Source of the DNA: an uncultured virus (IMG/VR IMGVR_UViG_3300005253_001911)
Lineage: Duplodnaviria > Heunggongvirae > Uroviricota > Caudoviricetes
Strand: one strand, 5' to 3'
Length of the DNA stretch: 64,000 nt
IMG/VR virus record: IMGVR_UViG_3300005253_001911
Part shown: piece after piece, positions 17,301 to 42,965 of the stretch
Numbering within the stretch: position 1 is the stretch's first letter
Layout of the letters: every line of letters begins with the position of its first letter
Translations under genes and position numbers: made by a program
The notes under the pieces: model-generated
Told to the model about the DNA's origin: nothing
The model's database searches: none
Seen by the model: the letters and a program-made list of their open reading frames with translations, nothing else

Positions 17301-17310
17301 AATACTCCCC

Positions 17311-17505
17311 CTATGTTTTACCTTTGCATGCCACATACAGAGCATAATCACATTTATATCTATCTTTACAATCCTTGCAGTGCTTCCTCTTAAAGATCTC
17401 AAGCCTAGCCTTCAACTGACGAGGTTTTAAGTACTTGTACCCGCCGAGAACATCACCTGGATCCCTAACAAGTTTTCCTTTGGTTTTTCCACAGTTACAT
17501 CCCAT
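17311..17505 (-). CDS. Small Cys-rich (zinc-binding) protein
   Basis: 64 aa, MGCNCG...CKDC...C...C; its start overlaps the stop of 17505..17750. Confidence 0.6.
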   Translation of the reverse strand: MGCNCGKTKGKLVRDPGDVLGGYKYLKPRQLKARLEIFKRKHCKDCKDRYKCDYALYVACKGKT

Positions 17506-27800: not shown

Positions 27801-30800
27801 GTAGACCATCCATAGTCGTACCACCAGACTCTACAGCTTCAGTTATACTCATCAACATATCTCTTGGAACAATAGCTCCTGCTCCCTTAGCTTGTTCTCT
27901 AATTCTCTGAATTTGAACCATAGCTTTCGTAACTTGTTCTAGTTCCACAGCCAAGGATTGTCTACGTATACCTTCTTCTCGTATTTCTGTGGCCCCCTGC
28001 GTAAATTCTCTTTTTTCTGTAGGCAATGCACGCTCTCTCAACAGCACTCTCTGATGAGCAGTCAAATCAAAGAAGTTTCTTATACCCAAATTTAAATTAT
28101 CAAAACCCTCCGGTATACCAGCAAGTAGTCCAGCAGTTTCAACTAGATGCTCAGTTCGAGCTTTTTCGACTGCCAGGTTTTCATTTAATATTCTACTGGA
28201 TTCAGCCATAGTTTTATTCAGATCTACCATAACAGCCATATATTGTACAACGACTTGATTATTTTTTATAATAGTGCTAAGCCTTTCTATTTCTTCTTGC
28301 ACTCCTTTACCCAGACTCTTATCAGCATCAAGGCGTTTCTTCGCCGTCTCAGTCAGCATAGCAAGCTCTTTCTGTGGCGCTATGAAGAACTCTCTTATAA
28401 TTTCAGGAAAATCCTGTTTTGTTTTTTGAGGCCCAAATGTACCGGACTGCTTATTGAAACCTATAGGCGTTTGTAATAATGTAGTTGTAGGTATTTGTTC
28501 AAAAAATCTAGGCCCTAAATTAAAAGTACGCTTGAATTCTTTATCTGCAACGCCTATCATACCAGCAGCAGCACCGGTCAATGATTCTTCCAATATATCT
28601 AAATTAACCTCTAACTGCTCCACAATTCTGTGGGCCGGAAATATAGAGTCAACAAAATTTTTCACAGAATCAAATGGGATTTCTTTTGTAGATCTTAGTT
28701 CTTTATCTATCACCTCTACGAAATATCCTAGACCTTCTTTGTATTTTAAAATACCTTGATCACCAGCTACAGCAAATTGTTTTTCTATTTCTTTATCAAA
28801 CAATACTATATCACCTACAAAAGCTTCAGTAGATCTTTGTATTACCTTAGCTTCCCTAAGTAATTCTTTAGTAAATGGCGCTGCGTAATCTATAGAAATT
28901 TCTGGATGTATTCTACGTAAAATTTCTATTCCTAGCACATCCTCCCAATCTACTATACCAACATCAGCTGCTTTACGTAGTCTAGGTTCAATATCCACCA
29001 TCAACTGAAAACCTTTCTCAAGACCTTCACTACCTAATAGTCCACCTATTTGTTCAGCGGTCAATCCTTGAGTACTAAGTTCTGATAAAATACGTTTGAA
29101 ATCATTATAGAACTCATCATATCGTTTACGTATTCCCTCTAAATTCTGATAATAGCGACTAAACAATTCGTCAAATGCAGTAGTCATAGGAAATTTATCT
29201 CTAGCTTCAAGAATCCTATTCAAAGCATCTTTAGCTTCTTTAAGTTCTTGTGCCGGAGACACTTTTATCTGCTCGGCCAAAAGCGGTCCTATACCTGGTA
29301 TCTCCTTAACAAACTTTTTAAGTTCTGATCTAAATTTAGCAGATGCTGATCCTGCATTAGTCAACTCTTCTGCAAATTTTTGTAGTGCAGCTACTTCCGC
29401 CTCTGCTAACTCCTCAATTTTAGCACTTTTCAATACCTTAAAATACTCTTCAAGATTACCCGTCGGCTTCAATATAGCATTACCAAATTCATCAAAACTT
29501 TGTATCAAATCTATGTTTGTCTTAGCCATCAAATTAGCTAAATTTCTAGCCTTTTTAGCATCCTTCTCTAATGCAAATACTGGGCTTACATATTCTTGTC
29601 TTCGTAAAGCAGTTTCTATTGATTGTGGTTCACGGGACTGGTTGGCCTTTTTTATATTTTCATCAAGTTTACTATAAGACCTGGACAATTCAACTATATC
29701 AGATATCTCATCACCTAATTTACGTCTCAATGGAGCTATAGAATCCTCATATTGATCAGCTGAAAAAGCAAGTTTTTTTAATCCATCGCCAATTTTACCA
29801 GTTATAGGTATCAAAGCCAATAAAGAACCAGCAAGAGGAGCTACAGATTTTACAAAATTTGTATTCTCTCGGCTCCACATAGCAAGTGCTTCCGCAGGAA
29901 CACCAAATAACTCGCCTAGCTTTTGAAATGCTCCTTCCGATGCTGCAGCTCCCGTGGCTGCAATATCAAGTATACCAGCAAGTGCGGGATTTTTAGTTAT
30001 GGTAGTAACAGCTAGCCCACCTAACCCGCCTGCAGCCGCACCGAATGCTTTACTTATAGTTTCAGAGGTAGCTGTTCCTGTAGCAGCTATCTCAGACATA
30101 ACAACGTTCCATCCTCTACCAAATTGTGCCAAAGTAAAAGCTGCTTTTCCAATTGTTGACTCAAAGTCTTGTATACTTTGTCCGGCTTTTCCTATAGTAG
30201 TTAGTCCACGTGTATCTATGGTGTTTAGTGCTTTAGGTAATTTACCAAAAGTTTCAAAGATACCTACTTTGAATTGATTCATAAACTCTGAACCAAAATC
30301 AGAGAATACACCAGTAAAAGATTTTATTCTATTAACAACACTACTGATTAAACTACTACCTTTTGTTATTAGAACAAACAGCGCTGAAAATCCTAATGCT
30401 GCAATTTTTAATCCTGGTGGAATGTTTGATATAACCTCTATCACGCCCTTAAGTCCAGTAAGTATTACTTTCGCTACTGGCAATGCAAATTTACCAAACT
30501 GAACTTGAAGTTCTGATAACGATTCTCTAACCTGTTGCAACCTTTTCGCATAGGTCTGCATCACAATCATATTACGTCTTTCAGCGGCACCTTTAGAATT
30601 CACACTATCTTCTAGTGTGTCTAAAACATCGTCCCAGTGGTCCATTAATATAATTAAATTATTATAATGACGCCTACCACCTATAGCTGTAGCAATATTT
30701 AATTTCTGTGCACTATTTAATTCATCCCATTTAGCAGCGAGATCGCCGAGAATATCAAACCCACTTCGAAGAGCGTTAGATTCACCTATAACAGGAATAT

Positions 30801-33800
30801 CTATTTTCTGTAATGCTTCCGGAGCTTTCTGAGACGTTAATCTTCTAAACATAAATCTCAAAGAAGTTCCGATCTCTTTACCAGTTTGACGAGAAGTCTC
30901 ACCAATACCTGTTATAATACCATTTAACTGATCAAATGTAACCCCAGCGGTACTGGCCACTGCGGCAGATTTCTTCAACGCATCTGCCAATGTCGCGGAC
31001 GTAACGGCGTGCTTGGCAGATACCTCCGACCACGAATCTAAAAATCTAATAGTACCCTGGCCTTCTATCCTATATACCTTCATAGCAGCAGTAATAGCTT
31101 CCGTCGCATCAGTGGTACTTAAAGTGGTAACATTAGCAGCCAACATAGATGTTCTTGTTCTATCAACAACTTCTTCCTGAGCTAGACCTTGTTGCGCAAA
31201 TACACGCATAGCATCAATTACTTGTCTTATTGGCAATCCGAAATCTTTAGCAAATGTTAGTGCAGATTTAGTTAGTTCTTCAAAATTAGTATTCAATGGA
31301 CTCATAACCTGGCGTAGTTTAGAAATACCAGTCTCAACATCAGCCATAGTATTAATAGTATCCTGTAAAGCACCCACCATACCATATACAGTTCTACTCG
31401 CAATACCCCAATTAATAACACGTTTAAAAGCCTGCCCCACGCCTTTACGACTCTGCAAGGACGCTATCATGTCGTCATATTTCTCTGTAAATAAACCTAT
31501 CTGCTGTCCAGTCGAATTTGCGGTTTGGCCTATATTTCTAAAATGTATAATTGAATCTTTTAGAACTTGCTTAGTAGCAGGATCAACTACTTTTTGTCGT
31601 AATGAAAATGCTTGACCACGCTCCGGACCGCCAGCAGCCTCAGCCGTTTTAAAAAATTTCCGTATTTGTGCTAAATTTCTCCTATGTAACAATGCTTGAG
31701 TCCCTGGATCCAAATTTGATGGTACATTTATAAGTCCTAATGCAGACCCACCAGGCCCACCAGAAGGCACGACCGCCTTCTCTAGTTGTTTTAATAATTT
31801 TACAGTCTCTTCTACATTAACACGCACTGCTTCGGTGTAATCAGCTCCTGAAAAACCGCTTATACGTAGTCTGTTATACGATTGTAATCCAGCCCTTAAC
31901 TGAGTAATGCCTTGCACTAACTTATCAAAATCCCACTTTGCAACTGCTTCTTCGCCAAATCTACCAAACAGTTCAGCATCCATTAGTATTTCTTTCAAAT
32001 CAATACCTTGAACTTTTCCCTTCGGCGCAATCAGCGCTGAAAAAGCTGCATTAACTTTTTCTAATGGTGCAGCAATGTCTTCAATATTAGCAGCGTCTAA
32101 ATCAGCAGTGAGCATATCCAATATTGGCTTAAATGGAGTACCAGTAACAGTGGTCTGTTTTACAAGTTCTTCTATCTGCTTTGGACTTCTATAAATACCA
32201 GTCAGTCTGGCAAGCTCTTCATCCACAAATTGAGTCTTTTTACCTGAAGGACCTGCGGTCGTGAATATATCACTCATCTTACCAACAGTACCACGAATAT
32301 TAGCCAAGAATTTCTCTATAACTTGTTCATACTCTATAAAAGCTTGCCTACCTTCGGGTGCCCCACTTTCTTGTTCTATAGTCTTTTTAAGCGCATCTAA
32401 TCTGCGTAGAAAATATTCACTTATAGACTTCTTATAAAACTGCCAAATTTTCTGTAGGCCGCCTCTTTTCTCTACAGGAAGATCACCCATAGCCTGACTT
32501 AATCTAGAACTAATATCAATGCCTGGGCCTTTTTCAGCAGCCTCTGTCAGTAATCCAGCAATATCAGGCCCAAACTTCTGAATTTCTTCAGAATCAGCTA
32601 ATCTATTAATCCTTATAGCTGCTTCATACAAAGCTCTTAAATTTTTATGTACTGCCTCGGGCCGGCTTGGTTGTATTCTTTCTATGTCAGCGGTGTAATC
32701 TTTCATAGCAGAAATAGGATTAATAATAGCAGCCTGATACTCTTTTAATGTAGTGGCTATTTTACGATAAGATTCTGGATCACCGCCTACCTGTACTATA
32801 ACTCTTTCAATACTATCTATCAAAGCCTCTAAATTTGCAGCTACTTGTTCTTGGCCATCTTTTCCTTTAGCAGCGTCAGCAATCTCCTGAGCATCATCAA
32901 TAGCTTTTACAATAGCTACCATCTCACGTGGCTCTGGTTCTATACCTCGTTGCATCCTGGTTATTATTTTTTCAATTCTTTTCTTTATTTCATCTTCATC
33001 ATCAAAACCATCGCCTGGACCTCCACCACCGGGAGGCACAGGAGGTGCACCAGCTGCTCCTGCAGCAGCGCCACCTTTTGCAAACAAGAATTTTAGTTGC
33101 CGCTCTCCTTGCCCAGGCCCACCCAGAGCTTGAAATAAGTCTAAGTATTCTTTACTCATCCTAGCAAAACGCTCTTCTTCTTTAGAGGTTAATCTACCTA
33201 ATACTTCTTGCGAAGTTGCTGGTGTTTCACCTACAGGTCTTGTAGGTAAAGTTTTTGCAAATTCTTCTGGTCCTATCGCTCCAAGTTTTTTGGCAAGTTC
33301 CTTATAAATCTTAGGGTATTCTTTTAACAAATCTGGAGGTAACCCACCAGTTACACTGAGAGATCCAAGTATATTACTAACAATACGTCTTGATTTTTCT
33401 ACTTCTTTAATATCCTTATCAAACAATGCAGGATCAAATGCACCGATATCAATAGTAAATTCTTTCCTTGGATCGAATGTGCTTACTATAATTATTTTAC
33501 CCACCGCACCTTCAACCCCTTTTAGATAAACATTTACCTGACTAAGGTAATCTTCTAGTCGACGTATAATATTTTTTTCTAGATACCCTGTTGGATCAGC
33601 AGCTTTTAACTCTCGCAATTTCTCTTGTACAGTAGTCTGCTCTTTTTCAATCTCCTCAGATATCTGTCTCAACCTATCAAACTGAGCTGTGCTGTATATT
33701 GTTTTTATATCCGCTACTATTTTTTGGCCAGCTTCTTCATATACCACATCCAAATGGCCAGTGATCTTATTGCCAAAATCTTCTATAGGAACCTCTATCT

Positions 33801-36800
33801 CAGCTTTAGGAAATCTTTCAAGCAACTCCTTTTGTTTTTGTCTATGAACAGCAGTTCCACGTAATCCAGTTACTTCCAACAACGCACTAGGTTTTGTAAG
33901 ACCAAGCATCTCTTGTAATATACCCTCTGTCTGTGTACCACCCCCAAAAGCACCTCCACCCTTCAGAGCGCTCGCTCTAAAAACTTCGTGCAACGGTACT
34001 TGTTTGGCCAGTTCTGGGCCTTTCGCTTTAGACTCCAAGTACTTTAAAGCATCTCTTTTTCTTCGTACTAATGCCTCACTTATAGCCCCAGTTAATGCAT
34101 CAGCAACTCCAACTGTTGTTTCCTTTAGTTCTACAGTGGCAGCCGTATCAGGTATATCAAATGATTTAGCAACCTGCTCTAATTCTTTAGTCCTGGCGGT
34201 AGGAAACGATCTCTTATGCCATTCTTCAATAGCTTTAATTCTATCCTCTTGGCTAGTTATAGCTTCTTTCTCAGCCGCCTGAGTTCTTGCTGCACCTTTT
34301 TCAAAGTCTATATCAGGAAAAGCCCGTTCAAGGTACTCTTTCTGAGCCGGCACAGTTGCCATTATTTCAGACACTCTTCTAAGCTGTTCTATAGTACTTA
34401 ATTGAAACTGTGCAAACTTTTGAATTTTGTCAGTGATTTCTTGTGCTCTCTGTTCTATATCTGCAGGCACAATTTGTTCTTCACGAACTAATGCTTCACG
34501 CTCTAAAAGACCTTTTACTCCTCCAAATATTCTTCCTCGCTGTTTTTCTTCAAACCCAGCTCCTATCAGTGCTTCTTCTTCTGGAATTAGAGGTCTCAAA
34601 CCAGCTATTTTAGATATATCTTCGACCTTAGTCCTGGCTGCTTTTTGAGCTGAGGCCATTTGATCTAGCCATTCAGTTATTTTGCCAGGATCTGGTTGTT
34701 CCCCTGGCGCTCCAGCTTCTCTCAATACCTGTGCCGCCAGCTTATTAGCTTCTAGTATGCCAGAAAATGGTACAGTTACAGCACCAGCAAATCCTTGTGC
34801 CTGTTTTTCAAGTTTCTGCAACTCTTCTAATTCTTTGTATCTTTGCTGTATAGCGGTCAATACTAAGAATTTATGTACTCCACCAGTCTCCACAGTACCA
34901 GTTTCAGCAAGAGCTGTGGATAGAGAAGCTGCTGCTTTTCTCGCGGTTTTTAGATCCCTTCTAAATATATCTCCACCTTCGGCGGGTAAATTAATCTGCT
35001 CTGGATCAATTTTTATACCTGTCCTATCAGCAGCAGTAGCCATGGTTTCCATACTTGTTCGCATTTTATACAACGGCTGTAAATTAGTAACAATGTGCTT
35101 GGATATAGCTATACCTGTATCAGAAATTGATTCTTTAGCAATTCGAATTTCTGCGAATTGTTCTACCCCACCAGCAGCTTTGACATCACGTCTCAATTTC
35201 ACTGTCGCTGGTGTTAGTGGCCCTTCCTCTAGTTGGCGCTGTAGATTTTTACTCAATCCTTTTATAGCAGCCCTTTGGATCATTCTAAATAATTCTTCAA
35301 AAGTTGCTTCTATATTCACCTTACTGAGTATACGCTCCATAAGAGCTTCTCTACTTATGTCAACCTCAGCTTCGGGCTCAAATAGTTGCAATTCTTTTTT
35401 TAATTCTTCTGTAGATAAGGAACCAAGTCTTAATTTCATCTGATTTGTAATTTCATCATTAAAATCAGACAGCTCCTCCCAGTTCTTATCTATACCTTTT
35501 TTCGCATCATCTAAAGACTTTCCAACAAATTCCGAAACATTTGATTTTCCTATCCTAGACAACAACTGAGGTCCAATGGCTTCAACGCCGGCATGTTTTA
35601 CATCCATTCCTTTCTGTATAACGAAACGTAGTATTTCATTTACACGAGCAGCAAATTCGCCTACTGGATCTCTACCTAAGGCCATACTCTCTTTTGGAAA
35701 AGCCTTTAAAAATTCTGGGGCTGGTTGGAAAGCTTTTCCGGTACCAGCGACACCAGCACCAAAACCGGTTTCCATCTCTGATATCCTAGCTAATCTACTA
35801 ATACCTTCGACTGTTCTACCTGTCTCTATCTTAAATAACTGACCACTAATAGCATCTGCATACTTCCGTTCCCATAACTGTCTACGTATTAGTTCCTCAG
35901 TTAGTTTAGCCATGTTCTTTGAAACCACATCAGCGGACTCACCAAGTTCTGGAATACCTGTTTCCGATGATCTAGCCTGCTTTATAAACTCTTCGCGCTG
36001 TGCGGCAGTTGCACCCACCCTCTTAGCCACGTCAGGTATTACTTGTTTCTCAACAAAACCACGGGCAGCTTCTGGTTGATCAAAAAGAGCGCCTAATACT
36101 TCTTTTATATTTAGATTTTTTACATCTTCTTGTATAAACGGTTTAGTAAGAAATTCGAATCCTTGAGTACCAGGGTGTTTTTTACTAAAAATATTGGCCA
36201 TTTCCGACAAAGCTGCAACATCAGTTTCTTTTACAGCAGTAAACACTGATCTAAACAATGTACGTACAGCAGTAGTATCTTTGCCCAGAGCCTCAAAATG
36301 TTTTTTAATTTCATCACGAGATTCTTGTACTTGTCCAGTATGTATAAATAAGGCATCCCCATCAAAATCCAACTTCTGCTCCATACTGGTAAATGTAGGA
36401 ATGGCTCGTTGTATAACTTTTAGCAACCCCTCTATAGCAGAAGTAAGTTTCCCAGCAGCCATGGCACCTTCTTCTGTACCTTTAGCCCATTCTTCTTCCC
36501 GTTTCTTTAATAGAGTTATAGTGTCTTCAGGCAATTCCTTAAGAGGCTTTATACCTACAAATTCTCTCAACTTATCCAGTGTTTGTGTAAGTTCTATTAA
36601 ACCTTCTTGACCTTCCTTCTTTGCAAACCCAGGAGCTCCAGGAACGGCTATCGAAAATTTGCCAAGCGGACCTTTTACAAGATCTTCCATTATTCTGGCT
36701 ATATGAGGTTGTATACTCGATACACCAGTAAATGGAAATCTCACAGATTGAACAAACACATCTTGTTCTTTTTTAATTAGTTCTTCAAGACTAAGAGCTA

Positions 36801-39800
36801 TCTCACTTTTTTCACCAGTCCTGACTTGTATCTTCTTCAACATTTCTGAAGGCAATCCTATTTCGCCAGGCTTCAAAACTGGCAATCCAACTCTCTTAGC
36901 CTTCTCAACAAAGTCGCTATGTAATTCTGTTAGATTTTTTACATTCTTAACTATCCCTTCTATTCCAGGAATCTTCAAATCTATTACATATTCCTTTCCT
37001 AGCTCCTCAAGTAAGTTGTTTAGATCTTCTGTCTTATCTGCTATAGCAGATATAGCTTTTCCAGTAATTGCCGGCGTAACTCTCTGAAAGAAAACCTGTT
37101 CAATACCTTTCTTCTTACCAAATACTTCTTTACCCAGCTCTTTAAAATATCGTACTTTAGCCTTACTCAAAGCTTCTCGTCTTAGTTGTAAAGCCTCTTC
37201 AATGGATTGCTGTATACTTATACCTACATTCTTTGCAAACTCATCCAGGTTGCCAGCTTCCAGTTCAATGTCGAAAACTGTTTTTGCCTTAGTACGTTTT
37301 TCCGTCTGTCTCAAAAAAGATTCTAACAAGGGTTCGAATCCACCAGCTCTTTTAGCTTTAACTTCCAGTTGTGGAGTTCTGAATCTTGAAGGTATATCAC
37401 CGGTAGCCCCTTCACGAAAAGCTTTTAGAGCGGAATTAATCTGATCTACTTCTCTTTTCAATGATTCAGGATTTGCGCCTATTAAAATATCAGAAAGTCT
37501 GCCAAATATTTTACTATATTGTCCTTTAAATCTTTTAGAAAACGCTTCAAAAGAAGGTAGTTCACCAGCTTCGGATCCTTCCTGATAAACTCCTGCAGCG
37601 GGACGTGTAGGCGAAAGAGCAGTCTTGAATTTTCCTATTGTGCGCTCCATGAACTCAATATTCTGTGGCGTAGAGGCTTTCTCAAGTTTTTGGAATGTTT
37701 TTATAGTATCTGTAAGTGTCTTGGTAAGTTCAGCACGGATAGTGGTTGCGAACTTTCTTTGGAATTCTTCACTAAGTCCGGCTCCACGCGTTCTAGCAGC
37801 ATCAGCCAGCTCTTCAACACTTTTTGCAGCACTTATCAAGTTGGCCAAATATCTACCAGTACCTGTTGGAGCTTGTGTACCCAACAATTCTTCTTGATAA
37901 GTACCTCTTAAGGAAGGGCCTGGAACACGAAACTCTTCATATTTTAATGGTCCAGGTTTAGTTGAAGGTATTTGAGTTTTAAAAGCTGTTGGAAATTTAC
38001 CTATATCAAATATTGTGCCTTTGAGTTGTTCAATTGTGCCTGTTGCCTCATCGAATTTTGTTATGTCTTCTAGTTTGACTGACTTTAAACTTTTCAACAT
38101 AGATTCACGCATACCCACCATAGTTGGATCTAATGACTGAAAAGTCTTAATAAGTTCCCACCCCTGGTCAGAAGCCAGGGCAGTGGATGCTGCCAGCTCC
38201 TGCATCATTTTAGACCCTTCACCAAATACTCCTGCCATAGCAGCAAATGATTGAAAGTCTAACCTTAAACCTTTTACACCTTTTTCTATTTCACCTGGAG
38301 TAGCTTCCTTAAATATATGAGGCTCTTCAACTATTTGTAAAAATTTAGGAGCTACTAAACTTTGTACACGCTCACCAAATTCATTTACAACCTCAGTATA
38401 AACAGCAACTGCTTTTTCATATTCTAATAATTTATCTATTTCTTCTTGACTTATACTTGGTTTCTCAAACTTTATTCTTTCTATAACTCCTGCTAAATCT
38501 TTAAATGGTTCAAACCCAAGCTCAATCATAACTTCTCTAAGACTATCCCTGGCTTCTTTAGTTTCTAATAAGGCGCCTTTCTTTATATCATCACTTAACG
38601 TAGTCACACCAGTAGTAGATCCAATAAGATTATTAACAACTGCCTCTAATACTTCAGGCATTAAACCTCTCTTAGCTATACCACGCGAACTTATACGCGC
38701 TTCTATAGGCTTAAATTCAGTCAGAGCTTCCTCTCCAAATCTTGTTTTAGATATATCTTTAATTTCTTTAATACCAGCCACGCCGCTTGGTAATTCTACA
38801 TCAAACATTGATTTAAACACCTGTGACACATCAGTAAATAATTTTTTCTGTTTTAATGCTTCTTCCTCCGTAACTAGTCCTTTGGATGCATCTTTAAACA
38901 TCTCAAGAATAAATTTATTACCTGATTCAATAAGCATGTCATGCATTTTGAGTCCAGCTGCTCCGGCCATTCCACCCTCGGCCTTCATCAACTCAGATAA
39001 TAATTGTCCCATACTTTTAGGTACTTCAGCAACACCCAACCCAGGCCCTGGCTTCACTCCAGCTCTAAACCCACGCTTTATAAAAGTAGATACATCTTCG
39101 ATTGATTTTATACGCTTAGGTAATTCTGGATCACCTTGTTGAGTTACAGACACACCCTTTGTGCCAAAACGAGTTGTAAATTTTCTACCAAAGAAATTTA
39201 AAAATACCTCAGTCAGTGCGGCTGATTGTACTTCAGCAGTCTTACCCCTATGTTCTCTCATTACAGTTTCAATTTTTTTGCCTATATCAGCTATATCAGC
39301 TCTACCCCTATAACGCTGAGGAACACCTAGTATATCTTGAAATTGACCAGATACCTCACCTAACACTTTTTGAAATGATTCCTCACCCTGTTCAGCTCTT
39401 TTTCGAGCTTCGGGTAATACTCTTTGTAATCCCGGTTCTATCTCAGTTATACGTCCACCAGTCTCTAGTAATACTTTAGCAGGCTTTATTAAACGCTGAG
39501 TTATTTCTGTAAAAACCTTTGCCAACCTACCAGAAATAACTATTTGATCTTCAAACGTGGAAGCAGTATTTCTAAGTTCGGTCAGTACATTGAATCCAAA
39601 TCCACCAGCCCCAAACTTACCAGATTCAATCATTCCTCTCTCTTTTGCACTAACTAAGGAAGGTATTTCTCCAGCTCCACCGCCTATTTTCAAAGCATTA
39701 GCAACATTCGATAATTGTCTGTTTATAGAACTAAATTCTTTAAAAGGAGCAGTTGCCCTTAAATTAGCAGTGCTCATATTTATCATAGTTTTGTCTATAG

Positions 39801-42800
39801 CTTTTAGATTGTTGTTTACCAGATTAAGTTGTTTTACTACAGAACTAGCCGCATCACTAACATCTAATGACGACGCAATTGGTTTTCCTAAAAACTCTTT
39901 TCCTTCAAATATACCAGGCTGTCCTAGTCTTTCTGATCTTCGTACAATATCTTTCCATAATAGTCCAGCATCCACTATATGCTTCGTTTGTTGTTCAGGC
40001 CCCAGCGGTTTAGCAGTCGGCCTTGTCAACACGCGCAAGCTTTCAACATCTACAGCGGTACGCTTTACACGTCCAGGCTCTATAAGCGGCATTAATCCTA
40101 CTACCTCGTTAACCACAGACGATATGTCTCTCATACTACTAGTAAATCTCCCTATAGTAGCAGCCTGCTTCTCAATAAATGGGGTTTTACCAGCCTGAAA
40201 TAATCTATCTAGCATGTCATAAAAATTCTCAAACGAAATAGTATCCATAGCTTTAGCTACATCTAAAAAACTCACTTTTAGAACATCAGCTTCTACTAAC
40301 AATTCTTTTATACTACGAGTCGCACCTATAAATTCAGGAGCCTTTTCTGTAGTCAAAGTACCTCGTTCCATACGTCCCATGGCTACAGCTTTAGCCAAGC
40401 CGCCTTTGACCGTGGTTTCTCCTCCAAGCTCTATAACTCTTTTAACAAGGATAGCAGCTAATTTCTCAGCCTTAGCGGCCGTAAGTTCTTCTGCAGGAGT
40501 TCTTGCTCCAGCTCCAGACGGTATCCGTATAGGCAATTTAGAAATTTCACGCATCATACGTTCAAGCTCTACCGCAGGAGCTCCTAGTAACTGCATCTCC
40601 TTAGCCAATCTTTCAAGACCAGTATTAATTGTTGCAAAGTTAGCAACAGCTCTCTCAGCACCAAATTTTGTTTTAAACGCTGGAAGTCCTTGTTCCCCTA
40701 CACTAATAGCTGGTATAGCTAGACGTTTTACAAAATCTTCCATCAATTTCTTTTCTGCTCTGGCCTCTAAAACAACTTGGCTGAATAATCTAGTAAGATC
40801 TGTCTGACTCGTTATTATATCAGCTGGTGCAATAGTTTTTTCCTTTATATCTTTAAATAACTTACCTACAGCTTTTCCCATTTCCTTAGCAGTCTCACTA
40901 GTTAATCCGCCTATCTCCCTATAAAGAGCGTCCGCCATAGCTTCAGGAGTTCTAAACGAAGACAACTGAGCCTGTACAAAAGCCTGTTTGAAAGTATCTA
41001 TTAATTCACCAGCGGTACCTCCTTTCGGTACAAATTGCTGAAAGTCAGAAGCTATTGCTTTACGAAGCCCTCTGACATCTACTATTTTTAGTTCAAACTC
41101 CCCTTTACCAGTGGCTAATTGAAAAGCTTCTCCGGCTTCGGTTTTCAATATTTGCATGCCCTTAGTCATGCCTTTCTCAAGGGAATTAACTATATTATTC
41201 TGTAGTTTGTCCAATGACTTGGCTAAATCACCAAATATAGCTGCGGCTTTTTCTTCCTTGACTGCTCCAGCGGGTGCTTTAAAAGCGAACGGATCAGCGG
41301 TCGGTCTAGGCCCTATTACCTGGCCTCCTTTAAAAATATTAGCTTGTATATTTGATCGTAATTTAGCAAGATCCTCTATTTCAATTACAGCTTTGTTTAG
41401 AGATTTGGTAGTATGCTCAGCAGCAATTGAGGCATCTTTAATATGTGTAGAAAAAGAATCAGCACTGTCAGCAATCTTTGCAGCAGATTCTCTTGTTGCC
41501 TTTTGTAACTCCTCAAAATCGCTGGTTGAAGATTCTACAGTTTTTTGAATAGAGTTTAACTTGGAAGCTAAATCTCCCTCAGCAGCTGCCAATTCTTTTG
41601 TACTTCCATCAACAGCTTTTAATAACGTAGCCGTAATATCTAGGTCAAACGTAGCATCGTGTAGCCCTTTACCAAACGACTTTATCTCTACACCAGCAAG
41701 CCTAAAATCTTCCTCAAATTTAGCTAATGAGTGCGACATGCGTTTTGGAAAAGCTTTTCTAGCCAAATCCAGAGTGTCCACTAATTTATCGATAGCCGAA
41801 TCTATTTCAATTCCGGCTTTCTTGAAATGCTGTTCTAAAACATGTATATCAAACCCTTTTATATTTTGACCAATTATAACTTCAGCATCCTTTAACACGT
41901 CGGCCAATTTCTTCATAGCCTCAGTAGCTTCCATACCTTCTTTTTGCAGTTTTTCAAATGCGATAGGCTCAACTTTACCAATATTACCTATTAGTTTTTT
42001 ATATTGTTCCTCTGTAGTTACACCTTTAGGCGGCTTTACAAGAAACTGACCTTTTTGGGCCTTACCGGACATTATATCAGCTATCGTTCCTTTTTGAAAT
42101 CCTATCTGACTAATAAACTCAACTGCTGCTTTTTTACCAAATTCAGTAGCCACTTTTTTAATTTCAGAGGTCTCCAAATCAACAGCGACTACAATTTTCT
42201 GACCCAGCTTTTCTTTTATATCTTTGAACTCTGCTCCCATATCTTTAAGAGCTTTATCAAACAGAACTGGAGGAGCCATTCGTTCTGTAGGTCTACCAAC
42301 AGGCTTAGTTTTAGCTCCGACAGCTTTTGACAATTCACCAATACTTTTAGACAACTCTTGAGAAGATCTTTCTTTCTTTTTAAGTTCTGTTAAAGCTTTT
42401 TCTAATTTATTTACAACGTCCGCTCTACCAGTCTCAAATGCCCTAGAGGTCTTTACTCTCTTAAGCGCATCAGTAAGTGCTTTTACATGTTTAATAATTT
42501 CTGGAGCATTTTTTATCGTTGCTGCTGCACCGCCAGCGACGCCGGCAGCTTTAATACCGGCTGCAATCTCTGTGGCTATTTTACCTGCTGACACAGCCTT
42601 TTCTATAGCTTTAGGTGTTTCTTTCAATACAACACTTACCTTACTAAGCGCTCCCTGTAAATTATTAATTGCTTTTTCCAACAGAGCCAGTCTCTTTTCA
42701 TTACGTTTAACTACTGCAATATCCACCTCACCAGTTTTTTTCACAATTTCAGCAGACCTCTCCAATGCCCGTTGAAGCTTATCTGCTTGGCGAGTTAATT

Positions 42801-42891
42801 TAACAATAGTCGTAGCCAGATCCTTGGTAGATTTATCGGTTGACGACTTTTCTATGTTTTCTATTTGGATTTTGTAAGTATCGACCGGCAA
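21889..42891 (-). CDS. Giant tape measure protein fused to a DEDDh exonuclease, a single-chain two-barrel RNA polymerase and a PD-(D/E)XK nuclease
   Basis: 7000-aa ORF, TTG start with GGAGG at 42900-42904. It sits in the canonical TMP position (after tail tube and chaperones, before hub). Domain motifs are listed as separate features. Confidence 0.9.
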   Translation of the reverse strand: MPVDTYKIQIENIEKSSTDKSTKDLATTIVKLTRQADKLQRALERSAEIVKKTGEVDIAVVKRNEKRLALLEKAINNLQGALSKVSVVLKETPKAIEKAVSAGKIATEIAAGIKAAGVAGGAAATIKNAPEIIKHVKALTDALKRVKTSRAFETGRADVVNKLEKALTELKKKERSSQELSKSIGELSKAVGAKTKPVGRPTERMAPPVLFDKALKDMGAEFKDIKEKLGQKIVVAVDLETSEIKKVATEFGKKAAVEFISQIGFQKGTIADIMSGKAQKGQFLVKPPKGVTTEEQYKKLIGNIGKVEPIAFEKLQKEGMEATEAMKKLADVLKDAEVIIGQNIKGFDIHVLEQHFKKAGIEIDSAIDKLVDTLDLARKAFPKRMSHSLAKFEEDFRLAGVEIKSFGKGLHDATFDLDITATLLKAVDGSTKELAAAEGDLASKLNSIQKTVESSTSDFEELQKATRESAAKIADSADSFSTHIKDASIAAEHTTKSLNKAVIEIEDLAKLRSNIQANIFKGGQVIGPRPTADPFAFKAPAGAVKEEKAAAIFGDLAKSLDKLQNNIVNSLEKGMTKGMQILKTEAGEAFQLATGKGEFELKIVDVRGLRKAIASDFQQFVPKGGTAGELIDTFKQAFVQAQLSSFRTPEAMADALYREIGGLTSETAKEMGKAVGKLFKDIKEKTIAPADIITSQTDLTRLFSQVVLEARAEKKLMEDFVKRLAIPAISVGEQGLPAFKTKFGAERAVANFATINTGLERLAKEMQLLGAPAVELERMMREISKLPIRIPSGAGARTPAEELTAAKAEKLAAILVKRVIELGGETTVKGGLAKAVAMGRMERGTLTTEKAPEFIGATRSIKELLVEADVLKVSFLDVAKAMDTISFENFYDMLDRLFQAGKTPFIEKQAATIGRFTSSMRDISSVVNEVVGLMPLIEPGRVKRTAVDVESLRVLTRPTAKPLGPEQQTKHIVDAGLLWKDIVRRSERLGQPGIFEGKEFLGKPIASSLDVSDAASSVVKQLNLVNNNLKAIDKTMINMSTANLRATAPFKEFSSINRQLSNVANALKIGGGAGEIPSLVSAKERGMIESGKFGAGGFGFNVLTELRNTASTFEDQIVISGRLAKVFTEITQRLIKPAKVLLETGGRITEIEPGLQRVLPEARKRAEQGEESFQKVLGEVSGQFQDILGVPQRYRGRADIADIGKKIETVMREHRGKTAEVQSAALTEVFLNFFGRKFTTRFGTKGVSVTQQGDPELPKRIKSIEDVSTFIKRGFRAGVKPGPGLGVAEVPKSMGQLLSELMKAEGGMAGAAGLKMHDMLIESGNKFILEMFKDASKGLVTEEEALKQKKLFTDVSQVFKSMFDVELPSGVAGIKEIKDISKTRFGEEALTEFKPIEARISSRGIAKRGLMPEVLEAVVNNLIGSTTGVTTLSDDIKKGALLETKEARDSLREVMIELGFEPFKDLAGVIERIKFEKPSISQEEIDKLLEYEKAVAVYTEVVNEFGERVQSLVAPKFLQIVEEPHIFKEATPGEIEKGVKGLRLDFQSFAAMAGVFGEGSKMMQELAASTALASDQGWELIKTFQSLDPTMVGMRESMLKSLKSVKLEDITKFDEATGTIEQLKGTIFDIGKFPTAFKTQIPSTKPGPLKYEEFRVPGPSLRGTYQEELLGTQAPTGTGRYLANLISAAKSVEELADAARTRGAGLSEEFQRKFATTIRAELTKTLTDTIKTFQKLEKASTPQNIEFMERTIGKFKTALSPTRPAAGVYQEGSEAGELPSFEAFSKRFKGQYSKIFGRLSDILIGANPESLKREVDQINSALKAFREGATGDIPSRFRTPQLEVKAKRAGGFEPLLESFLRQTEKRTKAKTVFDIELEAGNLDEFAKNVGISIQQSIEEALQLRREALSKAKVRYFKELGKEVFGKKKGIEQVFFQRVTPAITGKAISAIADKTEDLNNLLEELGKEYVIDLKIPGIEGIVKNVKNLTELHSDFVEKAKRVGLPVLKPGEIGLPSEMLKKIQVRTGEKSEIALSLEELIKKEQDVFVQSVRFPFTGVSSIQPHIARIMEDLVKGPLGKFSIAVPGAPGFAKKEGQEGLIELTQTLDKLREFVGIKPLKELPEDTITLLKKREEEWAKGTEEGAMAAGKLTSAIEGLLKVIQRAIPTFTSMEQKLDFDGDALFIHTGQVQESRDEIKKHFEALGKDTTAVRTLFRSVFTAVKETDVAALSEMANIFSKKHPGTQGFEFLTKPFIQEDVKNLNIKEVLGALFDQPEAARGFVEKQVIPDVAKRVGATAAQREEFIKQARSSETGIPELGESADVVSKNMAKLTEELIRRQLWERKYADAISGQLFKIETGRTVEGISRLARISEMETGFGAGVAGTGKAFQPAPEFLKAFPKESMALGRDPVGEFAARVNEILRFVIQKGMDVKHAGVEAIGPQLLSRIGKSNVSEFVGKSLDDAKKGIDKNWEELSDFNDEITNQMKLRLGSLSTEELKKELQLFEPEAEVDISREALMERILSKVNIEATFEELFRMIQRAAIKGLSKNLQRQLEEGPLTPATVKLRRDVKAAGGVEQFAEIRIAKESISDTGIAISKHIVTNLQPLYKMRTSMETMATAADRTGIKIDPEQINLPAEGGDIFRRDLKTARKAAASLSTALAETGTVETGGVHKFLVLTAIQQRYKELEELQKLEKQAQGFAGAVTVPFSGILEANKLAAQVLREAGAPGEQPDPGKITEWLDQMASAQKAARTKVEDISKIAGLRPLIPEEEALIGAGFEEKQRGRIFGGVKGLLEREALVREEQIVPADIEQRAQEITDKIQKFAQFQLSTIEQLRRVSEIMATVPAQKEYLERAFPDIDFEKGAARTQAAEKEAITSQEDRIKAIEEWHKRSFPTARTKELEQVAKSFDIPDTAATVELKETTVGVADALTGAISEALVRRKRDALKYLESKAKGPELAKQVPLHEVFRASALKGGGAFGGGTQTEGILQEMLGLTKPSALLEVTGLRGTAVHRQKQKELLERFPKAEIEVPIEDFGNKITGHLDVVYEEAGQKIVADIKTIYSTAQFDRLRQISEEIEKEQTTVQEKLRELKAADPTGYLEKNIIRRLEDYLSQVNVYLKGVEGAVGKIIIVSTFDPRKEFTIDIGAFDPALFDKDIKEVEKSRRIVSNILGSLSVTGGLPPDLLKEYPKIYKELAKKLGAIGPEEFAKTLPTRPVGETPATSQEVLGRLTSKEEERFARMSKEYLDLFQALGGPGQGERQLKFLFAKGGAAAGAAGAPPVPPGGGGPGDGFDDEDEIKKRIEKIITRMQRGIEPEPREMVAIVKAIDDAQEIADAAKGKDGQEQVAANLEALIDSIERVIVQVGGDPESYRKIATTLKEYQAAIINPISAMKDYTADIERIQPSRPEAVHKNLRALYEAAIRINRLADSEEIQKFGPDIAGLLTEAAEKGPGIDISSRLSQAMGDLPVEKRGGLQKIWQFYKKSISEYFLRRLDALKKTIEQESGAPEGRQAFIEYEQVIEKFLANIRGTVGKMSDIFTTAGPSGKKTQFVDEELARLTGIYRSPKQIEELVKQTTVTGTPFKPILDMLTADLDAANIEDIAAPLEKVNAAFSALIAPKGKVQGIDLKEILMDAELFGRFGEEAVAKWDFDKLVQGITQLRAGLQSYNRLRISGFSGADYTEAVRVNVEETVKLLKQLEKAVVPSGGPGGSALGLINVPSNLDPGTQALLHRRNLAQIRKFFKTAEAAGGPERGQAFSLRQKVVDPATKQVLKDSIIHFRNIGQTANSTGQQIGLFTEKYDDMIASLQSRKGVGQAFKRVINWGIASRTVYGMVGALQDTINTMADVETGISKLRQVMSPLNTNFEELTKSALTFAKDFGLPIRQVIDAMRVFAQQGLAQEEVVDRTRTSMLAANVTTLSTTDATEAITAAMKVYRIEGQGTIRFLDSWSEVSAKHAVTSATLADALKKSAAVASTAGVTFDQLNGIITGIGETSRQTGKEIGTSLRFMFRRLTSQKAPEALQKIDIPVIGESNALRSGFDILGDLAAKWDELNSAQKLNIATAIGGRRHYNNLIILMDHWDDVLDTLEDSVNSKGAAERRNMIVMQTYAKRLQQVRESLSELQVQFGKFALPVAKVILTGLKGVIEVISNIPPGLKIAALGFSALFVLITKGSSLISSVVNRIKSFTGVFSDFGSEFMNQFKVGIFETFGKLPKALNTIDTRGLTTIGKAGQSIQDFESTIGKAAFTLAQFGRGWNVVMSEIAATGTATSETISKAFGAAAGGLGGLAVTTITKNPALAGILDIAATGAAASEGAFQKLGELFGVPAEALAMWSRENTNFVKSVAPLAGSLLALIPITGKIGDGLKKLAFSADQYEDSIAPLRRKLGDEISDIVELSRSYSKLDENIKKANQSREPQSIETALRRQEYVSPVFALEKDAKKARNLANLMAKTNIDLIQSFDEFGNAILKPTGNLEEYFKVLKSAKIEELAEAEVAALQKFAEELTNAGSASAKFRSELKKFVKEIPGIGPLLAEQIKVSPAQELKEAKDALNRILEARDKFPMTTAFDELFSRYYQNLEGIRKRYDEFYNDFKRILSELSTQGLTAEQIGGLLGSEGLEKGFQLMVDIEPRLRKAADVGIVDWEDVLGIEILRRIHPEISIDYAAPFTKELLREAKVIQRSTEAFVGDIVLFDKEIEKQFAVAGDQGILKYKEGLGYFVEVIDKELRSTKEIPFDSVKNFVDSIFPAHRIVEQLEVNLDILEESLTGAAAGMIGVADKEFKRTFNLGPRFFEQIPTTTLLQTPIGFNKQSGTFGPQKTKQDFPEIIREFFIAPQKELAMLTETAKKRLDADKSLGKGVQEEIERLSTIIKNNQVVVQYMAVMVDLNKTMAESSRILNENLAVEKARTEHLVETAGLLAGIPEGFDNLNLGIRNFFDLTAHQRVLLRERALPTEKREFTQGATEIREEGIRRQSLAVELEQVTKAMVQIQRIREQAKGAGAIVPRDMLMSITEAVESGGTTMDGLQLDAQRKTEGHTADTVERLDDMLSAMKDPKAQARTIGQVEKFSNQLSKDIVSLGSTMPETLKHQFDRLAKLRQLHEKARNVQVVKAIDQAMTESSRKLIETVGVRKAAEIIEPRKSLIPSPLDVVKSIGKALGPSTDVFRHLPGEFNLEDLLSRAMGGEGLRGFTQRLKQSAEGATESQVRNAKVMNALRFALPGGIGLLTPAVEPVSKFKGIVESPEFKNLSKLMNDQNKISVVSSQTLTKLFAAYGAFNDIARRAARREQRGFEVQIMQLREQRKGLTVKFKAGEIEKTDFVSQTRDINKQMIDLSKRMKEAGKTAETRATREAVGLIASATTTFARSAGFSESALNALGKTAAGSIVAWHAWSTLTGKEMPEAVNKATDALKNWSDGLGDEGVDWLERLKFGAGQLFGGGFGAAGAAGAAAGGVEDMAKAQKDILNEEEKDKIRKMKDLQVSEDQVSKADDLLKDIKAGDTKKLSEDEKMVGINQDQLTTLLSIEENTRRAADGSEESARESKAEPSEEKKPVAAITKTLRDKLDVLRQERLGGKGKDTATRIRDLITAATVVAAGGYLGEKTKLSAELGEATRKAEKISKSFETLVKKFPNEVDAMIKELKVKREEAAKAAAEGAPEPEVKSRLLDAEKQFQTFIGQLSLMADSIGTELKDSTSKIAKAADRAALELHKEQVSKSIDDFAKSIVDASIDLEASMRFSTETIGAMRGLPRFEEIPTGKLPHELTATERLMKEGGEQWQNMFKAFQIISKTRDGIVELIKENSKRIVTQQVSLAKEGSKAFIENQKKAVEKELAKIPKFKALGKRVFEQYKALPEDERKAQQEQTTRSLASFNKRTRDIRSQAKDFNTSMGFSEFEKLMKSRRSQLKRLKDTSRQITKWWREGQITPEVYSKAIPKINKRVIEVQQGVQRLEEFGEKSTLAQAVVVLAEKARDAAEVLKYEADLHKLLAADADKLTQSMAALQQILFTGLNIQQVIGDFKRLKESFKISEEQRGFQNLIEDVMSRLRGGAHPEAPVFPTFEMVQAGVPSGDLFGMNKAESRRAEIVAREGRAPTLAEEQRIAFDTMLQQKKLAQAREDDKLRDQLRLAANMDTALIEAQQRAFKIEDPTARQTQIDALQELRDALRERVRTAGERAGEIEPGVFRRKGLAPLEDIGEGAQKIFETISKATGDLAKSFEDTIQKISVFQSPVVKELNDANQYLQAIRDNTAAKPGILSRIKTSVFGKVDETGAAPKAKQEGGSIVGPGGPTTDSVPILASTGEYVVKASSVSKLGTPVMNYINSTGNLPTMAASGGKVLAENKFIKQQLASGASMKEIQAELGGVKRDPLLDPTGLVAGGLGSFALSGALSSIIKSFAGKGLGRIGKTLLLRLGLAGTREGSIRAVGATLESQQSSRVTQGKTPTSIVGHRGFAGGLIPSFQKGGLTEAKKKHLDEIALEQRARRSKELRERQPIKPVPMSEKDSVWDYLRFLFTGEVGKFQGGIIQSFKNGGQPDLIETERGIAAHINKINKLSKEAESSGDYSKLRIYNAKYNLEEALKREKEAKKQKGPEVQKVLETIRKPKRPGLLEFMLKTFRNIGQEITGTTDKKQLGGIIQPFQEGGVVALPEYKNAHRYLTAEDPGKTPVWTPNVAKFITSNIRSRGFEAAADALNEATTWKAFYNSMLDVTGNAEDPEARFNKILNIPLPVDPERHKGAIRRNQQQLKNILEQLDKKEGGLISSYEQGTPFVPSNQLAYLHKGEAIVPSEFNTGGLIGLPKFALGGDVSPGKVLKEMESAGEKIGEAVVKKIEETSIDLNIPNESDLPELKVNLDGVQEALNNLNITGVGAVGTTTIDQFIEAANEKFDRLEELSISNTEQINIIDIKASVIDDLKTSMGDLEEQLAFTIRDINTKLVNERSYVDTQINKSLSDFKNVEINPIRTQIQMIELQISGLSNRIEDDHTFTLANINRLDLGVV
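30450..31430 (-). other. TP901-family tape measure core domain (aa ~3820-4150)
   Basis: ADVETGISKLRQV...ALTFAKDFG...AMRVFAQQG...LAANV...DATEAITAAM...LADALKKSAAVASTAGVTFDQLNGII...GKEIGTSLRFMFRRL. Confidence 0.88.
33420..33990 (-). other. RecB/Cas4-like PD-(D/E)XK nuclease domain in the giant protein (aa ~2970-3160)
   Basis: RASAL...GTAVH...EIEVPI...ITGHLDVV...IVADIKT...QVNVY. Confidence 0.8.
35550..39620 (-). other. Double-psi beta-barrel RNA polymerase region, beta-like followed by beta'-like (aa ~1090-2450)
   Basis: Ordered motifs TFEDQIVIS, GRKFTTRFGTKGV, ISSRGIAKRG..PEVLE, KGLRLDFQSF, FGKKKGIEQ, PGEIGLP, VRFPFTG..SIQP, LDFDGD (DFDGD at 36355-36369), IQKGMDVKHAG. Confidence 0.85.
41620..42200 (-). 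other. DEDDh (DnaQ/PolIII-epsilon-like) 3'-5' exonuclease domain in the giant protein (aa ~230-425)
   Basis: ExoI VAVDLETS, ExoII IIGQNIKGFD, LVDTLDLAR...HSL, ExoIII LHDATFD. Confidence 0.85.
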
Positions 42892-42965
42892 GTAACAGTC
42901 CTCCTATATTAATAAAAATTATATTAAGAATATTTACAGGACCTTTCCTTGCCGTGGTTGGTAGG

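Follow-up and report, generated by a model that had tools for sequence, protein, structure and literature searches.

A probable two-barrel RNA polymerase module within the 7,000-residue tape-measure protein of an uncultured phage

The DNA analysed here is a 64,000-nucleotide (nt) stretch of the uncultured Caudoviricetes virus recorded in IMG/VR as IMGVR_UViG_3300005253_001911, referred to in full length as the window. It is phage DNA of low GC content, and its minus strand carries a giant open reading frame (ORF) of 7,000 amino acids (aa) in which a stretch resembling the beta and beta' subunits of cellular RNA polymerases (RNAPs) is joined to a tail tape-measure protein. We consider it probable that this stretch is the catalytic module of a two-barrel, beta/beta'-like RNAP set in the tape measure of a jumbo phage and ejected as a virion RNAP, as is gp96 of Thermus phage P23-45, from whose lineage the present one is separate. 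Virtually all ORFs of at least 150 aa in the window lie on the minus strand; a major-head match (61102-62172) is found upstream of the giant gene, tail and tail-spike matches are found downstream of it, and the content of the window is that of the late structural block only. The following features were located on and directly before the giant ORF:

21889..42891 (minus strand): giant tape-measure ORF with the putative RNAP module, 7,000 aa, TTG start
42900..42905 (minus strand): Shine-Dalgarno sequence AGGAGG, 8 nt 5' of the TTG start, read directly from the sequence
41602..42189 (minus strand): DEDDh (DnaQ/RNase T-like) 3'-5' exonuclease domain, aa ~235-430 (Pfam RNase_T, E 2.6e-8; phrog_403, E 2.2e-14)
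35542..40134 (minus strand): predicted two-barrel RNAP module, aa ~920-2450, from five collinear hhalign segments (aa ~920 to 2374) shared with a compact RNAP; the outer limits are those of the weakest collinear matches
33661..33870 (minus strand): putative PD-(D/E)xK, Cas4-like nuclease, aa ~3008-3077 (phrog_1706, E 2.9e-6)
29992..31446 (minus strand): tape-measure core, aa ~3816-4300 (Pfam PhageMin_Tail, PF10145, at aa ~3875-4072; phrog_4211)
29788..30489 (minus strand): hydrophobic segments, aa 4135-4186 and 4346-4368 (Kyte-Doolittle average of at least 1.5 over 19 residues)
23863..24174 (minus strand): C-terminal tape-measure-like segment, aa ~6240-6343 (phrog_25241, E 8.8e-8; phrog_3547, E 4.2e-5)

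In the giant ORF, PF10145 scores 82.5 bits (cut-off 33.2; E 4.7e-23) and phrog_4211 reaches E 2e-55, while the two families detected in the C-terminal segment, phrog_25241 and phrog_3547, are annotated as tail length tape measure protein. The first two hydrophobic segments adjoin the tape-measure core and probably insert into a membrane; a third, by the same Kyte-Doolittle measure, lies at aa 6377-6395. The exonuclease domain matches DNA polymerase III epsilon chains weakly (E 0.004), and the nuclease segment finds a Cas4 chain in the PDB at E 0.79 only.

A sequence-only reading of the window had proposed a single-chain beta/beta'-like RNAP with its catalytic motifs in cellular order. The ten motif strings on which it was built are all present exactly as quoted, each of them once, where that reading had put them and in one minus-strand frame, that of the 7,000-aa ORF, whose residue numbering (D2175-D2179 for the aspartates) is used throughout. 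That reading was silent on the RNAP stretch (aa ~1090-2447) being internal to a 7,000-aa tape-measure protein, a circumstance that ties the stretch to the published P23-45 case. The strings, all exact, are:

aa 1112-1123, nt 39523-39558 (minus strand): TFEDQIVISGRL
aa 1235-1247 (minus strand): GRKFTTRFGTKGV
aa 1400-1416 (minus strand): ISSRGIAKRGLMPEVLE
aa 1540-1549 (minus strand): KGLRLDFQSF
aa 1924-1938 (minus strand): FGKKKGIEQVFFQRV
aa 2006-2014 (minus strand): LKPGEIGLP
aa 2050-2062 (minus strand): VRFPFTGVSSIQP
aa 2173-2184 (minus strand): KLDFDGDALFIH, including D2175/D2177/D2179
aa 2353-2367 (minus strand): FKIETGRTVEGISRL
aa 2425-2435, nt 35587-35619 (minus strand): IQKGMDVKHAG

Their order is that of the E. 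coli motifs, beta first and then beta', as positioned from the rpoBC locus: NFEDS at 811, GDKMAGRHGNKGV at 1063 and GGQRFGEME at 1266 in beta, followed by GKQGRFRQNLLGKRV at 333, NRAPTLH at 424, NADFDGD at 458 and TMRTFH at 931 in beta'. No D.D.D string other than DFDGD occurs anywhere in the 7,000 residues.

Conservation of the motifs was assessed in an alignment of 79 non-redundant module sequences with 30-87% identity to that of the window (alignment A6). Invariant in 79/79 sequences are, on the beta side, E1114, D1115, R1236, K1237, R1241, G1243, G1246, R1408 and G1409 and, on the beta' side, R2051, P2053, F2054, G2056, K2173, L2174, D2175, D2177, G2178, D2179 and H2184, with K1245 conserved in 78/79. 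Within DFDGD the second position is F in 65 sequences and Y in 14, the other four residues being the same in all 79. The claim that the aspartate triad and the beta lysines are intact therefore holds not only for the window but across the family (D2175/D2177/D2179 and K1237 in 79/79, K1245 in 78/79). Further downstream, in an extended alignment of 74 sequences covering the bridge-helix and trigger-loop candidates, K2354, G2358, E2362, N2418, E2419, R2422, Q2426, G2428, D2430 and K2432 are invariant (74/74) and H2433 is conserved in 68. Judged at the level of sequence, the motif matches exceed chance. By homology, D2175, D2177 and D2179 would bind the catalytic Mg2+, K1237, R1241 and K1245 would be the counterparts of E. 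coli beta K1065, R1069 and K1073, and E1114 and D1115 those of beta E813 and D814. The module can accordingly be divided into the following regions:

39112..39624 (minus strand): beta-like active-site region, putative double-psi beta-barrel B (DPBB-B), aa ~1090-1260, with TFED at 1112-1115 and GRKFTTRFGTKG at 1235-1246
37816..38694 (minus strand): beta C-terminal-like region, aa ~1400-1692, holding ISSRGIAKRGLMPEVLE and KGLRLDFQSF
36259..38124 (minus strand): beta' N-terminal-like region with predicted DPBB-A, aa ~1590-2211, from the alignment of a structural model with beta'/Rpb1/A'
36355..36369 (minus strand): putative metal-binding DFDGD, D2175/D2177/D2179, from conservation in A6
35770..35835 (minus strand): candidate bridge helix, aa 2353-2374, from a weak collinear hhalign match and conservation
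35587..35643 (minus strand): candidate trigger-loop start, aa 2417-2435 (NE..RF.IQKGMDVKHAG), from conservation and spacing

The trigger-loop candidate shows the M-x3-H-x-G spacing of E. coli TMRTFHIGG, and the bridge-helix candidate aligns weakly but collinearly with residues 885-905 of the compact RNAP described below (hhalign E 0.17). Together with the strong conservation of both segments, this suggests the two assignments.

The closest detectable relative of the module is a compact RNAP that is encoded elsewhere in related genomes:

L130:3215-6520 = G001:C1:44211-47519 (minus strand): compact 1,102-aa single-chain RNAP with FEDQI, G.KITN..NKGV, RFPCLG and LDFDGD

G001 denotes a related IMG/VR record judged 100% complete (268,764 bp, 34% GC, 268 ORFs). 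Pfam Rpb1_2 appears there in two places, at the DFDGD of the giant ORF (15.1 bits, below the cut-off) and in the 1,102-aa ORF (25.6 bits against a cut-off of 25.3), the latter also matching Rpb2_6 weakly (E 0.0048). The 268 ORFs form two opposed blocks; the giant gene belongs to the long block on the plus strand, the compact RNAP to the one on the opposite strand. The compact RNAP stands alone, without a tape-measure fusion and without the long insertions of the giant protein, and it is recognised by Pfam, whereas the module of the giant is not. The 235 clusters of its family come from contigs as long as ~330 kb; of the 120 clusters listed, most carry precomputed Rpb1_2 and/or Rpb2_6 annotations. 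Of the four related IMG/VR records with a completeness of 86% or more, three encode it; in the 64-kb window itself it was not found.

A profile of 32 compact-RNAP sequences (A7) connects this family to cellular enzymes. In an hmmsearch of the PDB it retrieved beta chains of bacteria and archaea (E 2.5e-5 and higher) and, at E 0.015-0.24, beta'/A'/Rpb1 chains, the beta' of phage AR9 and the P23-45 tape-measure entries 8h2n and 8h2m; hhalign placed it on residues 1031-1120 of E. coli beta at E 4.6e-5 and gave nothing relevant against the single sequence of E. coli RpoC. The module is homologous to this compact enzyme. Comparison of A6 with A7 by hhalign yielded a probability of 99.15% (E 3.8e-19, 431 columns), aligning aa 1041-1692 with compact residues 221-687, and a second collinear match over R.PFTG...LDFDGD (probability 62%, E 7.6e-5); further collinear segments cover the GK.G...R.P stretch and, N-terminally, aa ~920-938. 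Controls with either profile reversed reached a best probability of 0.2-0.3% (E 0.23).

The residue pairing within these alignments follows the proposed catalytic motifs. FEDQI faces FEDQI, and GRKftTRyGsKGV faces GxKITNlhGNKGV of the compact RNAP, which in turn is aligned with E. coli beta 1063-1075; ISSRGIAKRGLMPEVLE and KGLRLDFQSF face KIDVIVsaksvKRKNYGQILEAL and aGLKFStVEfRAL, the former of these in turn being aligned with beta 1090-1118. The beta motifs of the sequence-only reading are thus found opposite FEDQI, G.KITNlhGNKGV, KRKNYGQILEAL and GLKFStVEfRAL and, because the compact enzyme is aligned with both, they line up with the E. coli motifs that had been proposed for them. The motifs that stand opposite counterparts are FED, GRK..R.G.KG, KRG..E.LE and KG.kL..aF on the beta side and R.PFTG and LDFDGD on the beta' side; common to both proteins are FEDQI, G.K...G.KGV, KR...Q/E.LE, R.P..G and LDFDGD. 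Relative to its compact paralogue, the DFDGD barrel of the giant (36340-36744, minus strand, aa 2050-2184) has an insertion of ~90 residues between R.PFTG...VPG.P and KLDFDGD.

An AlphaFold2 model was computed for aa 1101-2300 from a 27-row alignment (mean predicted local distance difference test (pLDDT) 70.1, predicted template modelling score (pTM) 0.40) and compared with known structures in two ways, the best 50 matches being listed each time. In a wide search of 48,161 PDB representatives, RNAP largest subunits account for 14 of the 50 matches listed (Z 7.4-10.1), mostly over model residues ~490-1111: RNA polymerases (Pol) IV, I, II, III and V, those of African swine fever virus and vaccinia virus, archaeal A', the beta' subunits of M. 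tuberculosis, plastids and AR9, QDE-1 (Z 7.9) and an archaeal clamp fragment. The designed double-psi barrel 7dww aligns with model residues 840-1086 over 84 of its 86 residues (Z 7.5, root-mean-square deviation (rmsd) 2.4 Å). In a second look, at the 882 alignable chains ranked best by Foldseek, 48 of the 50 matches listed are RNAPs (Z 8.5-10.6, 128-267 residues aligned, 12-22% identity), the remaining two being mitofusin and talin. Model residues 490-1111 (aa 1590-2211) are matched with the chains from residue ~10-20 and mostly to ~490, in RNA polymerase I to ~660.

The modelled aa 1590-2211 thus show a beta'-like fold. What marks the two-barrel RNAPs, a beta'-type barrel with DxDGD following an R.P..G strand, is found here as judged from sequence and model. 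For the beta-type barrel the motifs (G.K...R.G.KG and FED) match at the level of sequence and profile, and this barrel is predicted from the profiles, its region having a pLDDT below 50. The helices of the DFDGD region in the model also match four-helix bundles, at Z 9-10.

The proposal of a single-chain beta/beta'-like RNAP with cellular motif order is in this way supported by four independent lines: the invariance of the proposed catalytic residues across 79 relatives; the profile homology to the compact single-chain RNAP, which itself matches Rpb1_2, Rpb2_6 and bacterial beta; the recurrence of Rpb1_2, the only sub-threshold Pfam match to recur; and the alignment of the AlphaFold model with the N-terminal halves of beta'/Rpb1. 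As to the third, among 40 module sequences searched with Pfam at E <= 1, 23 match Rpb1_2 (best E 4.8e-4), and the next commonest family is found in 3.

In order to place the module within its family, an exhaustive phmmer search was run with aa 1101-2300, which returned 106 representative proteins at E <= 0.001, 79 of them at E <= 1e-30; a named RNAP is not among the 106. Forty-six are giants of 6,000-8,000 aa that carry the module at a similar position, and the others are fragments; in relatives of 6,400-8,000 aa its relative position is the same. Module loci number 46 in IMG/VR and 79 in metagenome contigs (up to ~285 kb), and near-complete relatives measure ~230-270 kb. With tblastn, neither the module nor the compact RNAP finds a match in 50,697 deposited phage records. 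A scan of 185,579 species genomes gave two short contigs of metagenome-assembled genomes only, and with them no pointer to a host. On one 55-kb contig (L010, the same as L092) the giant ORF is broken only by in-frame TAG codons at nt 7603-7605 and 8620-8622, both inside the RNAP module; these may reflect TAG recoding, suppression or sequencing errors.

The fusion to a tape measure is a constant of the family. Phmmer searches with segments of the window protein detect the tape-measure core as well as the RNAP module in 46 of 46 giants, and for diverse loci Pfam places PF10145 in the ORF of the module, on its downstream side, in 11 of 11 cases. The exonuclease occurs in 14 of the 46 giants by phmmer and in 2 of the 11 loci by Pfam, and the nuclease segment (aa 2950-3150) in 23 of the 46 giants by phmmer. 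As the exonuclease and nuclease occur in part of the family, they are accessories, and the conserved core consists of the RNAP module and the tape measure. The term virion RNAP, which the sequence-only reading had used, draws its support from this fusion, present in every relative examined.

The amino acid composition of the giant proteins points in the same direction. Cysteine is missing from all 7,000 residues of the window protein and from 37 of the 47 giants with 6,000-8,000 aa, and no giant has more than 4; compact paralogues have a median of 16.3 cysteines per 1,000 aa, and the other ORFs of the window 8.2. Such a dearth fits an extracellular, ejected protein as opposed to the cytoplasmic paralogue. 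P23-45 gp96 has no cysteine in 5,002 aa either, but the non-virion RNAP of P23-45, gp64, is cysteine-free too. The placing of the giant gene and the compact RNAP in opposed gene blocks of G001 also bears on the matter. The tail sheath family PF04984 was found in none of four near-complete relatives, which fits, and does not prove, a non-contractile tail.

The precedent for such a protein is the tape-measure-fused virion RNAP gp96 of P23-45 (Chaban et al., 2024, Nat Commun 15:317; PMC10770324). According to that article, the 5,002-aa tape measure begins with ~1,200 aa that form an active two-barrel RNAP, its DFDGD lying at 779-783; virions contain this enzyme within the full-length protein, and 5 minutes after infection it is bound to pre-early genes. 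It has a non-virion RNAP paralogue, gp64. In the proposal of the authors, transcription and the entry of DNA through a tape-measure pore are coupled (PMC10770324). Together with the cysteine pattern, this precedent suggests how one may pass from a homologous and conserved module to one that is active, packaged and ejected. By analogy with gp96, the giant protein would be built into the tail at assembly and ejected via the tail tube on infection, whereupon its hydrophobic tape-measure part would form or line a channel across the envelope. In or at the cytoplasm, the RNAP module would then transcribe the first-entering, pre-early genes before any phage protein exists, and the compact paralogous RNAP, encoded elsewhere in related genomes, would take over afterwards. 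Enzymatic activity is what the intact catalytic residues lead us to expect; a location in the virion, ejection at infection and the template used we infer from the analogy.

Other explanations were weighed against this one. The module might be an active two-barrel polymerase whose main job is not early transcription but genome pulling, the making of primers or, with the exonuclease, work on nucleic-acid ends. The 3'-5' exonuclease and the Cas4-like nuclease on the same polypeptide would suit such a role, as would the coupling of transcription to DNA translocation through the tape-measure pore that the P23-45 authors propose (PMC10770324) and the occurrence among the structural matches of QDE-1, an RNA-dependent enzyme of the same superfamily, at Z 7.9. 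We nevertheless think it unlikely, in view of the accessory distribution of the exonuclease (14/46 and 2/11) and the nuclease (23/46), as against the universal RNAP and tape measure, and of a closest relative that is a phage RNAP with cell-type beta motifs. A second alternative is loss of activity: an inactive RNAP remnant, retained for a structural or DNA-binding role in the tape measure or in ejection, would account for the high divergence from cellular RNAPs, the long insertions and the escape from all family libraries. Dead enzymes lose their catalytic residues, whereas here the aspartate triad and the acidic pair of FED, together with the arginine and lysines of the beta motif, are conserved in 79/79 sequences (K1245 in 78/79), in relatives down to 30% identity; this speaks against a relic, so that we regard this explanation as decidedly improbable. 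Least credible, to the point that we hardly entertain it, is a chance resemblance of motifs in a long, low-complexity, helix-rich tape measure with no polymerase in it. A protein language-model look-up did place tape-measure clusters nearest (scores 0.92-0.93), and a profile including the N-terminal region matched mostly coiled coils in the PDB; but reversed profiles score 0.2-0.3% where the real comparison gives 99.15%, the homology extends over several collinear segments, the invariant residues are exactly the catalytic ones, and RNAP largest subunits make up 48 of the 50 matches listed in the second structural look. A PolD-like DNA polymerase acting with the exonuclease was also considered and rejected, since its supposed partner is limited to a single clade and the motifs belong to the RNAP type.

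The reading of the stretch as an ejected two-barrel virion RNAP has to be set against a number of results that weigh against it, most of which concern direct recognition. Pfam and PHROGs find no relevant family in aa 1001-2600. Searches of the PDB returned a single irrelevant match with the module by phmmer (E 0.51), coiled-coil matches to the N-terminal part with the profile that includes this region (A4), and five irrelevant matches with the trimmed profile A6. Foldseek gave nothing at E <= 0.001 for the model in either the PDB or BFVD, a few RNAP chains appearing near E ~1, and an ESM Atlas feature search returned tape-measure clusters only, with a recognition value under the tool's own benchmark. 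Aligned with single E. coli sequences by hhalign, A6 reaches just two short catalytic motifs, and these weakly: in RpoC the best local match joins KLDFDGD..H to NADFDGDQMAVH at 458-481 (E 0.0066), and in beta it joins FGRKFTTRFGTKGV to 1062-1076 (E 0.18). The module of the window is itself not among the 23 sequences matching Rpb1_2. Against gp96 residues 1-1200, A6 gave a probability of 0.3% in an unrelated stretch, a single-sequence template limiting the sensitivity of this comparison, and against gp64 it gave nothing.

The model and the distribution of the compact RNAP add to this list. Model residues 1-180, which hold beta-like motifs, are mostly below a pLDDT of 50 and partly helical; the cut at aa 1101 lies inside a stretch of conserved sequence beginning near aa 1040. 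The matches listed in the wide search also include, scattered between the RNAPs, helical bundles with comparable Z. The structural matches have an rmsd of 6-8 Å and a Z of 8-10, which is a middling range, and on account of the high rmsd we take the model to support an N-terminal half of beta' type, with the DFDGD barrel at its end, but no structural detail. Among 18 records searched, only 3 yielded the compact RNAP, and one that is 89% complete lacks it.

If the module is an ejected RNAP, several consequences follow. Scaled as in P23-45, at ~0.16 nm per residue, a ruler of 7,000 aa would correspond to a tail of ~1.1 µm, longer than the 800-nm P23-45 tail used for the scaling; were aa 3750-7000 alone to act as the ruler, the tail would measure ~0.5 µm. 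If the fusion moreover arose independently of the Thermus case, the lineage would provide a second independent system for the ejection and refolding of a folded polymerase of ~170 kDa, and would let one ask whether transcription pulls the genome in. The cysteine-free ejected RNAP and its cysteine-rich cytoplasmic paralogue would form a natural pair for finding out what travel through the tail demands of an enzyme. The arrangement of RNAP and tape measure, so far described for a small group of Thermus phages, would have a second and much larger case, and new here is its occurrence in an unrelated-looking, far larger protein family; this suggests that the coupling of DNA entry and transcription via the tail ruler may be a recurrent solution, not a curiosity. 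The results also help to annotate a blank of 1,500 aa in these giant proteins, and would give the two-barrel polymerases a further branch in their family tree. We put forward only tentatively that the fusion of RNAP and tail ruler arose independently of the Thermus case, by duplication of a cell-type beta/beta' enzyme that retains a clamp-like N-terminal part of beta', one copy being purged of cysteines and stretched by insertions to suit storage in, and passage through, a tail tube. It is similarly possible, though we would not call it probable, that this independent origin belongs to a widespread and wholly uncultured lineage of long-tailed phages of ~230-270 kb.

The surroundings of the giant gene hold further features. 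Scattered through the structural block of the window are eight homing-endonuclease genes:

1924-2838, 14031-14852, 15280-15960 and 16692-17402 (minus strand): homing-endonuclease genes, HNH or endonuclease-VII type
52920-53678, 55697-56197, 58607-59221 and 60007-60687 (minus strand): homing-endonuclease genes, HNH or endonuclease-VII type

The structural block also includes a two-domain glycosyltransferase, and two proteins encoded downstream of the tape measure bear Big_1 Ig-like domains (glycosyltransferase and Big_1 proteins: 49609-51303, 10867-12126 and 3502-6135, all minus strand). A tRNA search of the 64-kb window found none. The minus-strand block of G001 (L136-L140, ~12-116 kb), which also holds the compact RNAP, carries genes of NAD salvage and RNA repair as well as helicase and sigma-like genes; among its products are NAMPT, an NMNAT-Nudix protein, an RNA ligase, RtcB and a TROVE/Ro-like protein, together with a sigma-70 region-2 protein, RuvB-like and DEAD helicases, an anti-Pycsar Apyc1-like protein and phiEco32-like COOH-NH2 ligases with amidotransferases.

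Compared with bacterial RNAP, the module has the same motif order as E. coli RpoB and RpoC, with GRKFTTRFGTKGV in register with GDKMAGRHGNKGV (beta 1063-1075) and KLDFDGD..H in register with NADFDGD..H (beta' 458-469), and its model resembles the N-terminal half of beta' (8jo2_D, Z 9.3, 245 residues aligned). It differs in being a single chain with no alpha or omega partners evident, in its fusion to a virion protein, in an identity of ~16% over the aligned structure, in its long lineage-specific insertions and in that no family model matches it at threshold.

Delivery of an RNAP with the DNA, inside a very large virion protein, is described for crAss-like phages (phi14:2 gp66) and N4-like phages in PMC10770324. 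The module shares this concept of delivery with gp66 of phi14:2 and with the N4-like virion RNAPs; in those phages, unlike here, the partner protein of the RNAP is not a tape measure. The N4 virion RNAP, moreover, is T7-like and not a two-barrel enzyme. The structure of gp66 (6VR4) is not among the structural matches listed, which shows nothing either way.

The closest parallel in architecture is gp96. By every sequence test run, the module belongs to a different family: 8h2m and 8h2n are not listed among the PDB matches of A6, and only the compact paralogue reaches gp96, with A7 aligning to its DFDGD barrel at a probability of 82.6% over 75 columns (2.3% against gp64). The motif filter given in PMC10770324, [RK]xPx{20,100}DxDxD, would miss the window protein, since P2053 and D2175 are 122 residues apart. 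A full-text literature search, outside whose coverage subscription journals lie, found no tape-measure-RNAP fusion beyond the P23-45 work; the lineage may nevertheless be one of the 23 families of PMC10770324. In architecture the two giant proteins are alike in combining a two-barrel RNAP carrying DFDGD (predicted in the present case) with a giant tape measure and membrane segments in one polypeptide, and in being cysteine-free; like P23-45, the present phage may have a second, compact RNAP elsewhere in its genome, as is seen in some relatives. They differ in the position of the RNAP, which is internal here (aa ~920-2450) and N-terminal in gp96, in its length (~1,500 aa, roughly double, against a minimal 327-1124 in gp96), and in the length of the tape measure (7,000 against 5,002 aa). 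The phages differ as well, P23-45 being an 84-kb Thermus phage and the present one a low-GC phage with relatives of ~230-270 kb, and the clade of the window adds exonuclease and nuclease domains. Finally, gp96 is described as clamp-less, whereas the model of the module aligns with beta' from ~20 to 490, clamp elements included (rmsd ~7 Å, pTM 0.40), so that the module appears to keep N-terminal elements of beta' that are missing from gp96.

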